Below are positions 16,036 through 55,071 of a stretch of DNA of 64,000 bases, piece by piece. The stretch covers positions 32,001 to 96,000 of the forward strand of contig CBDCFN010000015.1 in NCBI GenBank assembly GCA_965216315.1, in the 5' to 3' direction. The position numbers and the translations under genes are program-made. The notes under the pieces were generated by a model. That model ran no database searches. It was not told the origin of the DNA and saw only the letters and a program-made list of their open reading frames with translations. Source of the DNA: a bacterium (GTDB lineage: Bacteria; UBA10199; 2-02-FULL-50-16; JAJFLM01). Numbering within the stretch: the stretch's first letter is position 1; every line of letters begins with the position of its first letter.

Positions 16036-16062
16036 TCATCGCCACTTAGCGCGTAATGTTGT
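16036..16062 (-). promoter_or_regulatory. Sigma-28-like motif ACAAC-N16-CGATGA
   Basis: 22 nt upstream of the kinase ATG (16013). Confidence 0.7.
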
Positions 16063-16076
16063 GTAAAAAAGGTGGG

Positions 16077-16886
16077 TTATCCGGCGTAAGCCTGGCGAAG
16101 AATCATCATCAAGCGCAGATGCTGGGCTATTTCCCTTCCAAGAATGGGCTTCATCACCCTCCAGGTCTGATGATCTTCCGGAACAATATTTTCTTCCCGG
16201 CCAGTAATAACCAGGATAGGGAGATCCGGGCGCCGTTGGCGAAGCTCCCTGACTAATTCATCGCCACTCATAAGTGGCATATTGAAGTCGGTAATAATGG
16301 CCGTTAAGCGATCTAAGTTTGATTCGGCCAACTGTAATCCTTCTTGACCATTCGACGCTGTCATAATTTCCTCAAACTTAAAGGGACTCATGCCTCGGAT
16401 AATAGCCCGATGAAGTATGGCCATGTCATCGACATACATGAGAACTTCGCCACCGGGACTCTGCGGATCGACAACCTTGACGACGGATTCCGCTAAGTGG
16501 CTTGTCATCTTGAAGTGAATCCCGGCATCCCATAAGAGTCGAATCGATTCTTTGATGGCCGTCGCCCCCGCCTCACCGTAGTCTTCCGCAAAAGATGATC
16601 CTTGAAAGACAGTAAGAACACTGCACAGCACGTTGATAACCGACGACTCGATAGCCAGCTTCGCTTCCAACAACCGAACCTGGGCTACTGGCTTAGCAAA
16701 AAGTTGAAGCAGGGACCCGACATCATTGCGAAGTGGCTCCTCCAGTTGAGACAACCCTAGAGCCGATTGAAATTGATGCACGGCCGGAGCGATATTCTTC
16801 TGAGAGATTGGTGGTACTTGCAAGGCGGCCGCAGCCGTATTGAGGCCGAGGGCGACCTGTTGAAAAAGCGTAGCATTGACCGTCAT
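16077..16886 (-). CDS. Receiver-domain protein with helical N-terminal extension
   Basis: YVDD...ITDFNMPLMSG...ITG...KP. Start reassigned to ATG 16886, because the longer ORF overlaps tadA. Confidence 0.8.
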   Translation of the reverse strand: MTVNATLFQQVALGLNTAAAALQVPPISQKNIAPAVHQFQSALGLSQLEEPLRNDVGSLLQLFAKPVAQVRLLEAKLAIESSVINVLCSVLTVFQGSSFAEDYGEAGATAIKESIRLLWDAGIHFKMTSHLAESVVKVVDPQSPGGEVLMYVDDMAILHRAIIRGMSPFKFEEIMTASNGQEGLQLAESNLDRLTAIITDFNMPLMSGDELVRELRQRRPDLPILVITGREENIVPEDHQTWRVMKPILGREIAQHLRLMMILRQAYAG

Positions 16887-16894
16887 GCCCTCCC

Positions 16895-16921
16895 TTCTCG
16901 CCCTTGAGCCCCAATAGTTGC
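16895..16921 (-). promoter_or_regulatory. Sigma-28-like motif GCAAC-N16-CGAGAA
   Basis: 8 nt upstream of ATG 16886. Confidence 0.68.
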
Positions 16922-16994
16922 CTAAAAATTTATCCAACCTAACCGGGATCGCTTGGGCCTTGTGAGATCCGCAACGGGCCGCTATAAGGCCGAG

Positions 16995-17447
16995 ATGATG
17001 CCTAATCATGAGTATTACATGCGCATGGCCCTCCAGGAAGCCGCTCAAGCCGCTCGGGAGGAAGAGGTCCCCGTCGGGGCGCTCGGCGTCTATCACGAAG
17101 AAATCATTGCCCAGGCCCACAATGTCCGGGAACGCGACCAGGACCCCCTTGCCCACGCTGAAATCGCCGTCATCAGCCAGGCCGCAAAGCAGTTGAACAG
17201 CTGGCGCCTCGAGGAACTCATCGTCTACGTCACGCTCGAACCCTGCCCGATGTGCATGGGAGCCCTGCTCCAGGCGCGGGTCCCCAAACTAGTTTATGGG
17301 GCGATGGATCCCAAGGCCGGAGCCTGCGGGTCTTTATATGATTTGTCTAATGACGACCGGCTCAACCACCGCATCGACGTGACGCGCGGTGTTTTAGCGG
17401 AAGAATGTGGTCAGGTCTTGAAAGATTTTTTTCGGAGTAAGCGATAA
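16995..17447 (+). CDS. tadA: tRNA adenosine(34) deaminase
   Basis: EVPVGA, AHAE, YVTLEPCPMC, DPKAGA.GS, LNH. Confidence 0.96.
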   Translation: MMPNHEYYMRMALQEAAQAAREEEVPVGALGVYHEEIIAQAHNVRERDQDPLAHAEIAVISQAAKQLNSWRLEELIVYVTLEPCPMCMGALLQARVPKLVYGAMDPKAGACGSLYDLSNDDRLNHRIDVTRGVLAEECGQVLKDFFRSKR

Positions 17448-17762
17448 TTAGGCTTCGACTAACTTCTGCAACTCGCCACGCTGAAATAATTCCAATACGA
17501 TATCACAACCGCCTACAAACTCGCCGTTGACAAAAACCTGTGGAATCGTCGGCCAATCGGAATAAGTTTTGATCCCGGCACGAATAGATGGATCCGAAAG
17601 CACATCAATCGCCTTGTATTGAATGTTGAGTTCATTAAGGACTTGGACGGTCTTAGCCGAAAAACCACATTGGGGCGCTTCGGGAATACCCTTCATAAAA
17701 ATGACTACTTTATTGCCTTTGACTTCATCATCAATAATTTTTTGGACGGCTTCTTCTGACAT
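17448..17762 (-). CDS. grxD: Monothiol glutaredoxin Grx4
   Basis: PQCGFS, WPTIPQ, GGCD. Confidence 0.96.
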   Translation of the reverse strand: MSEEAVQKIIDDEVKGNKVVIFMKGIPEAPQCGFSAKTVQVLNELNIQYKAIDVLSDPSIRAGIKTYSDWPTIPQVFVNGEFVGGCDIVLELFQRGELQKLVEA

Positions 17763-17777
17763 GATTCTATTTCCTTC

Positions 17778-18098
17778 TTATGCGGTGTTCTTATTGCGCC
17801 ATTCTTCGGGAGTATAGGTATTCAAGGTCAACGCATGAATTGCCCCTCCCTTGTCCTCGAAACAATCAGCCATGATCTCATAGATCATGCGATGCTGTTT
17901 GAGCATCATGAGTCCCTCAAACTGCGGAGCAATGACGGTCATACTGAACTTATTCCGACTGCACGAGATATCGTCCATTAAGACTTCAGCCCCCGGCAAT
18001 TCACTTTGTAAGCGTTTAACGATGTCCGCCGGCGCCATCTCGCGCCCCTTCGTTCCACAATTGTATTTTTCTTTCGGCTCTGCATTCATAGTAGACAA
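17778..18098 (-). CDS. BolA/IbaG family protein
   Basis: FEG...LKQHRMIY, IHALTL; adjacent to grxD. Confidence 0.9.
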   Translation of the reverse strand: MSTMNAEPKEKYNCGTKGREMAPADIVKRLQSELPGAEVLMDDISCSRNKFSMTVIAPQFEGLMMLKQHRMIYEIMADCFEDKGGAIHALTLNTYTPEEWRNKNTA

Positions 18099-18159
18099 TC
18101 ACTGACCAATATTGTCATACATTGCAAGCAAAATGTGAACCCCTATCGACGGAGGAACG

Positions 18160-53313: not shown

Positions 53314-53362
53314 CTTCTAAAAATCGCCTGTTATCATGTCAATGAAAACCCTTTAAAAACAC

Positions 53363-53391
53363 TTGACTGACCGTGACCTATTTCGCATACT
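53363..53391 (+). promoter_or_regulatory. Sigma-70 promoter of rho
   Basis: TTGACT-N17-CATACT. Confidence 0.65.
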
Positions 53392-53476
53392 TGCCTTACT
53401 TCCGCCAGGAACCAACTCGGCGGTCAATCCCACGAAAGCGAGATCTTTACTACAAACCCGAAAGACGATTTCCGTT

Positions 53477-54901
53477 ATGCCACCAAAAAAATCTGCTGCC
53501 AAAAGGCCTCATTCGCCCCGTCCAAACGACCAAAACCGGCCCCGTCGCGCCCCTGAACCAAACCGGGCCCCTCGGTCTGACGGTCCCCCGAAAGCAGCAC
53601 GGCCCCAGCAGGTCAATCACGAAGAAAATGTGGGCTCTCCCGTCAACGGGACGATGAATCTCAAAGAACTTAAGATGATGCCCATCGATGAACTCACCCA
53701 CTTAGCCAAGGACTTTGGCATCGAAGGGGCGGCCGGAATGCGGAAGCAGGAACTGATGTTTGCCCTGCTGAAGGCCCAGACGGATAAAAAAGGCGCCATT
53801 TACGGTGAAGGCGTCCTCGAGATATTGCCGGATAATTTTGGCTTTTTACGGGCCAATGATGCGAACTATCTCCCGGGACCGGATGATATTTACGTGTCCC
53901 CCTCCCAAATCCGCAAATTCAACCTGCGGACCGGCGACACGATTTCCGGTCAAATCCGTCCGCCGAAAGAAGGTGAGCGCTACTTTGCCTTACTCAAGGT
54001 GGAATCAATCAATTTTGAAGACCCCTCTGTCGCCCAAGATAAAATTTTGTTCGACAACTTAACGCCCTTTTATCCGAACGAACGACTCCATCTGGAGTAC
54101 ACTCCCAAGAATTACACCACCCGGATCATTGATCTCATGGCCCCTATCGGCAAGGGACAACGTGGTCTGATCGTCGCAGCACCTCGAACCGGTAAAACGG
54201 TCATGATGCAAGACATTGCCAATGCAATCTCGATCAATCATCCCGATGTCGTGCTGATGGTCCTGCTCATCGATGAACGGCCGGAAGAAGTCACCGATAT
54301 GCAACGTTCGGTTAAAGGTGAGGTGATCAGCTCGACCTTCGACGAACCCGCACAACGCCACGTTCAGGTTGCCGAAATGGTCATCGAAAAGGCCAAGCGT
54401 TTGACCGAGCACAACAAAGACGTCGTCATTCTTTTAGATAGCATCACGCGCTTGGCACGCGCTTACAATACGGTTGTGCCGCCGTCCGGCAAAATTCTTT
54501 CCGGTGGTGTCGATTCCAATGCACTGCATAAACCAAAGCGTTTCTTCGGGGCCGCACGCAACATCGAAAATGGCGGCTCACTCACGATCCTTGCCACAGC
54601 CCTGATTGATACCGGAAGTCGCATGGATGAAGTGATCTTCGAAGAATTTAAGGGCACCGGTAATTCCGAGATCCATCTCGACCGGCGCCTGATGGAAAAA
54701 CGTATTTTCCCCTGTATGGATATCAATCGTTCCGGAACGCGAAAAGAGGAACTGCTTTTGGATGAAAATATCCTCCAAAAAGTTTATATCCTTCGAAAAA
54801 TTCTCCACCCGCTCAACGTCATCGATGCGGTCGAATTTATGATCGACAAGATGTCATCGACCGAAAACAACGTCGAATTCATTGATTCAATGAATCAGTA
54901 A
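53477..54901 (+). CDS. rho: Transcription termination factor Rho with N-terminal Pro/Arg-rich extension
   Basis: [47 protein letters not shown]. Confidence 0.97.
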
Positions 54902-54903
54902 TA

Positions 54904-54943
54904 GGGGCTAGCGTCGCCCCCTCCAGAAGCAAAGCTCCTGGAG
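54904..54943 (+). terminator. Tandem hairpins after rho
   Basis: ggggc...gcccc and ctccag...ctggag stems. Confidence 0.4.
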
Positions 54944-55005
54944 CCTCCCCCATCTCACTCGCGTTGCTCGTTAGGTCGCTTATGCTCCCCACAATGTGTT
55001 TCCCT

Positions 55006-55038
55006 CCCTTTGTAAAGGGAGGCTAGGAGGGATTTAAT
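55006..55038 (-). repeat. 33-bp dispersed repeat, copy 2
   Basis: Exact reverse complement of 25190-25222. Confidence 0.85.
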
Positions 55039-55044
55039 TGCCAA

Positions 55045-55071
55045 GCAACTTTGGTGCTCTTTGATCGAAGA
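55045..55071 (+). promoter_or_regulatory. Sigma-28-like motif GCAAC-N16-CGAAGA
   Basis: 6 nt upstream of ATG 55078. Confidence 0.7.

Follow-up and report, generated by a model that had tools for sequence, protein, structure and literature searches.

A bipartite motif, RCAAC-N16-CGA, recurs immediately upstream of scattered genes in the 64-kb window analyzed here (the whole stretch of DNA under study; G000:C15:32001-96000), which belongs to a 2.96-Mb genome from the uncultured candidate phylum UBA10199 that is assembled in 16 contigs and is 98.3% complete. We propose, with a probability of about 0.8 on the sequence evidence, that this motif serves as promoter for an alternative sigma factor belonging to the sigma-28 (FliA/WhiG) family, and that its reader is the FliA-like sigma encoded in the same genome. 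The gene for that sigma is embedded in an operon of a non-flagellar type III secretion system (T3SS); the predicted targets are mostly lineage-specific proteins, many with a common uncharged N-terminus. A role of these products as secretion substrates is a more tentative proposal, and is weighed separately from the promoter below.

A spacer-specific motif at gene starts

Within the window, RCAAC-N16-CGA occurred 13 times on the two strands together, compared with a mean of 4.59 (standard deviation 2.10, maximum 9) in 100 dinucleotide-preserving shuffles, none of which attained 13 matches. Ten of the 13 were positioned at gene starts. These are the ten sites that an earlier note on this DNA had listed as too numerous for chance; all were recovered, each before the ATG named there, and the excess over chance was borne out. 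The three other matches (12943+, 54054+, and 54352+) were intragenic or antisense, two of them within rho, and fit the chance expectation.

The enrichment extended to the whole genome and was specific to the 16-nt spacer. RCAAC-N16-CGA had 484 matches, versus 189-341 for thirteen other spacers from N10 to N23, and CAAC-N16-CGA[TA]A had 206, versus 52-88 for other spacers. An ATG opening an open reading frame (ORF) of at least 100 amino acids (aa) followed within 60 nt at 211 of the 484 N16 matches, as opposed to 26-62 for spacers N12-N21; 76 such ATGs stood 9-13 nt past the CGA for N16, while other spacers had at most three at any one distance. Positional enrichment at gene starts was thus present genome-wide, as the earlier note had anticipated from the window, and tied to N16. 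The consensus of the 211 sites was cGCAACTTTT-N10-gCCGATAAg, a directional, non-palindromic motif without flank conservation except for its T-rich tract. A 33-column weight matrix iterated from the 211 sites, with the reversed genome as control, returned 367 sites at 14 bits or more (39 in the control), 271 at 16 bits or more (14), and 130 at 20 bits or more (2).

The geometry of the motif is that of a sigma-28 promoter. In the solved Pseudomonas aeruginosa fliC promoter, as given in the passages used from PMC12784957, the -10 element is (-15)GCCGATAA(-8), the -35 element is (-36)TCTAAAG(-30), and the flipped base is the A at -11. Aligned on this promoter, the CGA of the motif falls at -13 to -11 and its CAAC at -33 to -30, where fliC has AAAG, and the genome-wide consensus gCCGATAA matches the sigma-28 -10 element GCCGATAA of that reference. 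The earlier proposal that RCAA-N15 has sigma-28 geometry with a different -35 is therefore exact. In the promoter that we propose, CAAC would act as the -35 element and gCCGATAA as an extended -10.

Gaps between CGA and ATG at the ten window sites were 25, 11, 10, 10, 42, 9, 10, 13, 10, and 9 nt, that is, 9-13 nt at eight of the ten; counted from the end of the CGAnnn box, the ATG lies 6-8 nt past the motif in seven of ten, as previously reported. The sites, with their matrix scores, are the following.

16039-16062, minus strand: ACAAC-N16-CGAtga, before 13752-16013(-), hybrid histidine kinase/receiver; ATG gap 25 nt; 21.9 bits
16898-16921, minus strand: GCAAC-N16-CGAgaa, before 16077-16886(-), receiver-domain protein; ATG 11 nt past CGA; 20.6 bits
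19003-19026, plus strand: GCAAC-N16-CGAtaa, before 19037-19888(+), FHA-domain protein; ATG 10 nt past CGA; under the 14-bit matrix threshold
22907-22930, plus strand: GCAAC-N16-CGAtga, before orphan 22941-23855(+), 304 aa, no Pfam family, N-terminus MLGAVSSTQLLSTALPAMVLASGP; ATG 10 nt past CGA; 23.8 bits
23892-23915, plus strand: ACAAC-N16-CGAagc, before orphans 23958-24452 and probably 24465-25184; 42-nt leader with gaggataa before the ATG; 14.3 bits
25256-25279, plus strand: ACAAC-N16-CGAtaa, before orphan 25289-26713(+), 474 aa, and probably 26716-27657; ATG 9 nt past CGA; 15.7 bits
32743-32766, minus strand: ACAAC-N16-CGAtag, before orphan 31470-32732(-), 420 aa; ATG 10 nt past CGA; 20.2 bits
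33698-33721, plus strand: GCAAC-N16-CGAtaa, before orphan 33735-35051(+), 438 aa; ATG 13 nt past CGA; 21.4 bits
42064-42087, minus strand: GCAAC-N16-CGAaga, before 40917-42053(-), patatin-like phospholipase; ATG 10 nt past CGA; 15.0 bits
55045-55068, plus strand: GCAAC-N16-CGAaga, before orphan 55078-56058(+), 326 aa; ATG 9 nt past CGA; 18.0 bits
12899-12926, minus strand: N18 variant CAAC-N18-CGATAA, before the Big_5-domain gene 11736-12782/12815(-); leader 83-116 nt to the possible starts 12815 and 12782; status uncertain

The last of these is the N18 variant that had been reported before 12782(-), and it does exist. With the strict CGATAA box, genome-wide counts were 90 for N16, 31 for N17, 30 for N18, and 7-17 for the other spacers, such that N17 and N18 copies are mildly enriched; 14 of the 30 N18 copies start with CAACTC. 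Elsewhere in the window, a 559-aa single ORF (19851-21530, minus strand) joins TatD-type DNase and radical SAM domains.

A FliA/WhiG-like sigma within a type III secretion operon

Sigma-related genes of this genome comprise those for an RpoD-like and an RpoH-like sigma (the latter with 317 bits on rpoH_proteo), for two extracytoplasmic function (ECF)-like sigmas, for a sigma-70 region-4 domain in a 1033-aa frame, and for one FliA/WhiG-like sigma of 275 aa (C16:350583-351407), the sole sigma of its type in the genome. FliA_WhiG (TIGR02479) was the best of the 53 models that matched the 275-aa protein, at 133.5 bits, with the WhiG and FliA models also among the top family matches, and the closest solved proteins were WhiG (6pfv, 3.8e-29) and FliA (9wsf, 1e-26; 6pmi, 2e-25; 1rp3, 3e-20), followed by SigF (1.5e-14). 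A model of chlamydial sigma-28 gave 93 bits against a cut-off of 378. The region-4 domain in the 1033-aa frame (C16:92146-92382, minus strand; 63.5 bits) lies in mid-frame with no other sigma regions detected, an unusual fusion.

The sigma gene is surrounded by genes of a secretion apparatus. Starting with a TPR gene, the operon continues in this order with SctJ, two ORFs (151 and 119 aa), the sigma gene, an ORF of 162 aa, a FliG_C-like gene, SctL, SctN, SctO, a FliK/HpaP-like gene (SctP-like), a FliM-like gene, FliN, FliO, SctR, SctS, and SctT, with SctV and an FHA/YscD-like gene approximately 10 kb upstream. SctV, J, L, N, O, Q, R, S, T, and U were all matched by Pfam and lie in or near C16:339-360 kb, except for SctU at C16:805026. 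There was no secretin gene in the cluster, both secretin-domain matches of the genome being distant (C16:974670 and 16707), and the needle family had no match in the genome at E<=0.1. Flagellin and rod domains were not found in this 98.3% complete genome, which has one FHIPEP gene only.

None of the apparatus genes of the cluster had a promoter site of at least 14 bits. The sites of that strength before ORF starts in the surveyed stretch were at an M23 peptidase gene upstream, an internal TTG of a RecN-like gene, and a 717-aa orphan downstream, and two further ones were intragenic with no ORF start after them. Two orphans with strong promoters (23.4 and 23.0 bits) come after SctT. A regulon lying outside the apparatus genes would have the layout of the flagellar class-3 (late substrate) tier. 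For the 717-aa orphan, atlas matches were below threshold (0.85; including clusters named T3SS effector NleC and HopF2), which makes them a lead and not evidence, and the atlas look-up of the 304-aa window orphan gave no usable match.

Conservation of motif and sigma across the lineage

We compared the genome with 30 relatives from 17 families and, for the sigma, with a phylum-wide set of 93 genomes. CAAC-N16-CGATAA occurred 23-80 times per relative, versus 0-8 times for the reversed pattern, and N16 copies outnumbered N18 copies (6-30) in 29 of the 30, G007 being the exception. One ortholog of the secretion-linked sigma, with 57-84% identity, was present in all 30 relatives, and the sigma was found in 89 of the 93 phylum genomes, including 62 of the 63 high-quality ones. 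FHIPEP (SctV) was present in 31 of 31 genomes. The gene order SctJ-sigma-FliG-like-SctL-SctN...SctT was kept in three distant families, and a FliG-like gene stood just 3' of the sigma in all 11 loci of further relatives. Regions 2 (NVDFKTFAYYRIKGAIYDGLRK) and 4.2 (LGLSKSWTSRLHARAL) of the sigma were nearly identical in 12 genomes, most positions being invariant and none varying in more than two genomes. The group-3 sigma that the earlier note had postulated, with region 4.2 as the part to inspect, has a single, highly conserved candidate in this genome.

Flagellin was detected in three relatives only (G014, G022, and G029). Each of these has a second FHIPEP with a canonical FliA a few kb downstream, which scores 215-224 bits and so passes the cut-off, and each has the secretion-linked sigma (130-138 bits) as well. 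Because both sigmas occur in one cell in these relatives, the secretion-linked sigma is a distinct paralog. The earlier expectation of a FliA/WhiG-like sigma was thus right as to family, with FliA_WhiG the best model, but the protein is not flagellar FliA itself. The two paralogs differ in the region 4.2 helix, which reads LSKSWTSRLH in the secretion-linked sigma and S(V/I/L)(S/T)E(S/A)R(I/V)SQ in the canonical FliA of the flagellated relatives. We infer that this change may underlie the CAAC -35 element and keep the two regulons apart.

Anti-sigma gating would be expected for a secretion-linked sigma of this kind, and a fast-evolving ORF of 94-143 aa was located immediately 5' of the sigma in 11 of 12 loci. 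In the genome studied here the corresponding 119-aa ORF received no family from Pfam or NCBIfam. Complex prediction of the sigma with the upstream ORF gave a median of 0.54 (runs of 0.54, 0.71, and 0.54), compared with 0.00 for the best of three controls; the runs had at least 34% of contacts in common and a partner predicted local distance difference test (pLDDT) score of at least 43, which supports the pairing weakly. In calibration, 116 of the 157 solved complexes reached the mark, as did 2 of the 215 mismatched pairs; at or below 0.60 there were only 18 of those solved complexes, and both mismatches, counts that hold only roughly here since the predictions used our own alignments. Additionally, the 162-aa ORF that overlaps the sigma stop codon was considered as an anti-sigma and rejected, as it is more likely an inner-rod protein (SctI/FliE-like): five of 12 members of its family matched PF17001 SctI (best E 5e-4), and the E value was 0.12 for MxiI and 0.62 for FliE. 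A CAAC-N18-CGATAA copy is found at C16:349488-349515(+), 25 nt before the 151-aa ORF that heads the stretch of the 151-aa ORF, the 119-aa ORF, and the sigma, and could be a means of autoregulation of this stretch.

Promoters placed for predicted leaderless transcripts

A start codon of an ORF of at least 80 aa lay within 200 nt downstream of 319 of the 367 matrix sites. The distance from CGA to this start was below 9 nt at 24 of the 319, 9-14 nt at 109 (79 ATG, 28 GTG, and 2 TTG), 15-60 nt at 131, and 61-200 nt at 55. A Shine-Dalgarno (SD)-like core was sought at -18 to -5 after removal of a coding tandem repeat (see below), the close class being taken here as 8-14 nt (99 sites). It was present at 11% of the close class, equal to the frequency at 3000 random positions, versus 41-44% at leaders of 25 nt or more and 39% across all crude ORFs. 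Given the 8-14 nt spacing and an SD-like core at the background of 11%, the close class has neither room nor signal for a ribosome-binding site.

By analogy with the P. aeruginosa fliC promoter, transcription would start 10 nt past the A of CGA. This places the predicted start within a few bases of the start codon in about one-third of the promoters, and the mRNA would therefore have no leader and no SD sequence. About a third of the sites thus appear placed for leaderless mRNA. The earlier description of the regulon as mostly leaderless holds in the window (8 of 10) and not genome-wide, where it applies to 109 of the 319 sites with a downstream ORF.

Targets are mostly orphans

Six of the ten window targets encode proteins without a Pfam family, as do 15 of all 63 window ORFs; the other four targets are the hybrid kinase, the receiver protein, the FHA protein, and the patatin-like phospholipase. 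Among the 60 top-scoring targets genome-wide we scanned 39, leaving out 13 that lie in the tandem repeat and eight more, of which five were ORFs of 82-113 aa, two were window genes covered by the scan of the window, and one was an ORF of 247 aa. No family was assigned at E<=1e-4 to 29 of the 39, and among the others are GGDEF, subtilase, metallophosphatase, NAGPA, FGE-sulfatase, cysteine-dioxygenase-like, TSP3, and TPR proteins and two AMP-binding paralogs. The latter (C10:7389-8824 and C16:1640050-1641897, one of them at the end of a small contig) have a near-identical N-terminus, MFTGLM(T/S)SNLAT..., and a 22.9-bit promoter 10 nt before GTG. Homologs of the 474-aa window orphan were found in two of the 30 relatives, and of the patatin-like protein in four. 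The view of the earlier note that the targets are largely orphan, lineage-specific genes is upheld by these counts.

Promoters were also present at homologs and paralogs of window targets. In relative G010, a homolog of the 474-aa orphan is preceded by a site of 19.0 bits, at 10 nt from the ATG. Two paralogs of the patatin-like protein in the genome studied here, as well as one homolog each in G002 and G010, also have the promoter. Across these loci the sites score 19.0 bits at 10 nt, 18.6 at 11, 21.0 at 48, 19.8 at 14, 13.1 at 10, and 13.0 at 58. Four other homolog loci (one in G001, one in G003, and two in G010) had no site of 13 bits or more. A 1428-aa secreted BPI-like protein (C16:1746038, minus strand) has a 20.0-bit promoter 8 nt before its ATG, by which the regulon also takes in some Sec-type exported proteins.

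A shared uncharged N-terminus

The N-termini of regulon products are similar to one another, for example MLATALSSSLTAPLLLANAV, MVVLGSLSAASLAPVLAAAP, and MTLLALNPALATSLLAAAAS. The segment spans approximately 20-28 uncharged residues, among which Ser, Thr, Ala, and Leu abound, and its end is often (L/V)LA(A/S)(S/G/A). Residues 2-20 were free of D, E, K, and R in 60 of 99 leaderless and 39 of 122 leadered targets, versus 190 of 2346 crude ORFs, and the median position of the first charged residue in the regulon was 29. Of the 237 targets whose start was no more than 60 nt away, 131 fell into the class that we term uncharged and weakly hydrophobic, versus 243 of 2346 ORFs, and the class also took in 55 of 138 non-leaderless targets. 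In contrast, N-termini resembling Sec signals or transmembrane segments were depleted in the regulon (17 of 237, versus 584 of 2346 ORFs). The median of the best 10-residue hydropathy was 1.62 in the regulon versus 2.81 in a comparison set of 212 Sec-like N-termini from this genome; the segment is predicted to be too weakly hydrophobic for a Sec signal.

Composition in the segment was biased at codon position 2 (C 37% and T 35%, versus 24% and 28% later in the same genes), with position 3 and synonymous codon choice ordinary. Because the bias is at position 2 and not at position 3, selection acts on the peptide and not on the 5' RNA, and because it is an amino-acid-level rather than a nucleotide-level bias, the segment is not an artefact of leaderless mRNA. 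A small hidden Markov model of the segment had 182 matches at 8 bits or more, 126 of them with a promoter within 200 nt, an overlap that is partly circular since the top matches include the 60 training sequences. The 131 proteins with the uncharged N-terminus contain 2.9% K and 7.2% R, versus 4.9% and 5.8% in all ORFs, and their genes have 53.4% GC versus 51.1%. We infer that the segment acts as a signal for export or sorting, in all likelihood by the linked T3SS.

Alternative explanations

Two other origins of the motif would leave the FliA-like sigma without a part in it, and we regard both as very improbable. ECF promoters have an AAC -35 and a CGT-type -10 that are 16-17 nt apart, a layout superficially like CAAC-N16-CGA, so that the motif might be an ECF (group 4) promoter (AAC -35, CG -10) read by one or the other ECF-like sigma. 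However, the -10 extends to gCCGATAA, the sigma-28 consensus, and not to CGT. Moreover, searches of the 30 relatives turned up ECF-1 in 11 and ECF-2 in 18, and the 12 relatives with neither still have 26-80 strict motif copies each. The odds are equally slight for a transcription-factor site or dispersed repeat whose position at gene starts reflects regulation of sigma-70 promoters. A candidate regulator is encoded in the window itself, a DUF4423/TIGR02147 helix-turn-helix protein (35211-36053, plus strand), but the motif is directional, with strict -35/-10 spacing and a fixed 9-13 nt to the ATG, is not a palindrome, and lacks conserved flanks beyond the T-rich tract, and the leaderless class leaves no room for a separate sigma-70 promoter before the start codon.

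Several observations weigh against the sigma-28-type promoter with the FliA-like sigma as its reader, or against details of it. Thirty-seven of the 367 matrix matches are false, as they derive from one coding tandem repeat, and 330 sites remain. (The repeat, at C16:684374-691242, consists of a 99-bp unit present approximately 69 times in frame within an ORF of at least 2566 aa, and its 33-aa repeats are Cys- and Asp-rich.) The -35 element is at the sigma-28 position but reads RCAAC and not TAAA(G), and the 133.5 bits of the 275-aa sigma fall under the curated TIGR02479 cut-off of 189.6. FlgM (PF04316) had no match in the genome at E<=1. None of the ten flagellin loci of the three flagellated relatives had a correctly placed promoter of this motif class, by reason of which the classic link between sigma-28 and flagellin is unusable as a functional anchor. 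Gene starts came from a crude in-house ORF caller and not from a trained gene finder. In two distant relatives the leaderless layout was much weaker (1 of 20 strict sites in G023 and 5 of 20 in G030), and so was the uncharged N-terminus (1 of 20 and 3 of 20, respectively); both traits are less conserved than the promoter. Finally, the N-terminal segment of the patatin-like protein is partly the enzyme domain.

A further alternative accepts the promoter and its sigma and disputes the export. The N-terminus might be a pro-peptide, a sorting peptide (of an atypical Sec type or of another kind), or a side effect of leaderless translation, and the regulon a general stationary- or dispersal-phase programme unrelated to secretion; this we hold to be a serious if rather unlikely account. 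No known motif ties the N-terminal segment to type III export, its LA-A/S-S/G/A end resembles a signal-peptidase site, the early apparatus substrates (SctI-like and SctP-like) are without the segment, and the regulon also has signalling members, among them a histidine kinase, receivers, and a GGDEF protein. Against a Sec-type or leaderless origin stand the low hydropathy and the lack of a basic n-region, the occurrence of the segment on non-leaderless targets, its bias at the amino-acid level, and the depletion of Sec-like N-termini, and against a programme unrelated to secretion stands the position of the sigma gene within the secretion operon.

Discussion

The mechanism that we favor would begin with the holoenzyme of the sigma-28 paralog firing from approximately 300 CAAC/CCGATAA promoters, or roughly one gene in ten. 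About one-third of the transcripts would open with the start codon and undergo leaderless translation, and the uncharged segment would route more than half of the products to the needle-less T3SS. On this reading the regulon would amount to a programme for contact or secretion, made up of effector-like, lineage-specific proteins together with some signalling proteins, in line with the contact programme that the earlier note had suggested as a possibility. The export route is the weakest step of this mechanism. That the regulon constitutes the substrate set of the secretion system is, on genomic evidence, a possibility to which we give somewhat less than even odds. We are more doubtful of the complete scheme, in which the FliA paralog, fixed throughout the phylum in a needle-less T3SS operon of ancestral type, would be the late-substrate sigma of that system, the ~300 promoters would define its effector repertoire, ~130 proteins with the uncharged export signal and often with leaderless mRNAs, and the activity of the sigma would be coupled to secretion via a small, fast-evolving, FlgM-like partner encoded just upstream.

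In Escherichia coli, Salmonella, and P. aeruginosa, the flagellar FliA/FlgM class-3 checkpoint covers a few dozen promoters, which serve late substrates and not apparatus genes. The predicted regulon resembles this checkpoint in that its promoter is off the apparatus genes and on putative late substrates, and in that the sigma gene is placed among those of the export apparatus. It differs in the lack of a flagellum or a detectable FlgM, in having ~300 promoters rather than a few dozen, in the region 4.2 helix, and in the many leaderless promoters. Also in common, as far as the cited passages of PMC12784957 go, are the -10 element GCCGATAA and the -35/-10 geometry.

The closest functional analogue is found in Bdellovibrio bacteriovorus, in which, according to the sections drawn on from Karunker et al. 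2013 (PMC3627812), a FliA promoter, TTAAG-N16-CCGATA, stands at 92 of 140 mapped attack-phase promoters, many of them of non-flagellar genes. There, too, a sigma-28-type promoter presides over a very large and mostly non-flagellar set of lifestyle-phase genes, many of which lack characterisation. Bdellovibrio is, however, flagellated, and its sigma is described as the homolog of flagellar FliA (bd3318), whereas the genome studied here showed no flagellin or rod domain and has a separate paralog in a type III operon and a CAAC -35. The Bdellovibrio targets are described as including surface anchors and proteases, while here Sec-like N-termini are depleted and the uncharged segment is dominant (PMC3627812, same sections). 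The word 'leaderless' is absent from the text retrieved of that paper and of PMC12622784.

With respect to the apparatus, the system is comparable to the 'needleless' T3SS* of Myxococcus xanthus, which lacks secretin, needle, and translocon and is needed for prey lysis, with effectors unknown (PMC12075869, passages cited), and to the non-flagellar T3SS of the Myxococcales, which Abby and Rocha (2012; PMC3459982, likewise in part) place as basal among such systems. Like the system studied here, both have a non-flagellar sorting platform and export gate, both lack a secretin in the cluster and a detected needle, and both come from the former 'Deltaproteobacteria', a likeness in gene content. In contrast to the dedicated sigma and readable regulon described here, the portions consulted of PMC12075869 and PMC3459982 make no mention of a sigma factor. 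Chlamydia trachomatis provides another sigma-28 factor in a non-flagellated bacterium with type III secretion and a late developmental programme, but there chromatin immunoprecipitation sequencing found two bound promoters only, hctB and tsp, as opposed to the ~300 predicted here (PMC12282069, from the passages available).

Among the injectisome and FliA titles listed in our literature search, there was no case of a sigma-28 factor tied to a non-flagellar T3SS, and the UBA10199 papers listed had nothing on promoters or secretion in their titles and abstract openings. A dedicated FliA paralog in a non-flagellar secretion operon, found phylum-wide and with a regulon sharing an N-terminal segment, did not turn up among these listings and passages.

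For an uncultured candidate phylum, the DNA offers a testable list: a dedicated sigma, a sharp promoter, ~300 target promoters, and an N-terminal segment on ~130 products. It suggests a duplicated FliA insulated from the flagellar copy, with the -10 element the same and the -35 element and region 4.2 helix changed, and contributes a large set of predicted leaderless mRNAs from beyond the phyla in which such mRNAs are common. Needle-less systems of the former deltaproteobacteria matter in the contact-dependent killing by Myxococcus, with substrates unknown in the passages cited (PMC12075869). Should the export reading fail, a solid regulon prediction for a global alternative sigma would remain, Bdellovibrio-like in kind. 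If the export reading is true, the flagellar class-3 checkpoint would have been kept in a non-flagellar machine, and the regulon would be the first readable substrate list for such systems.

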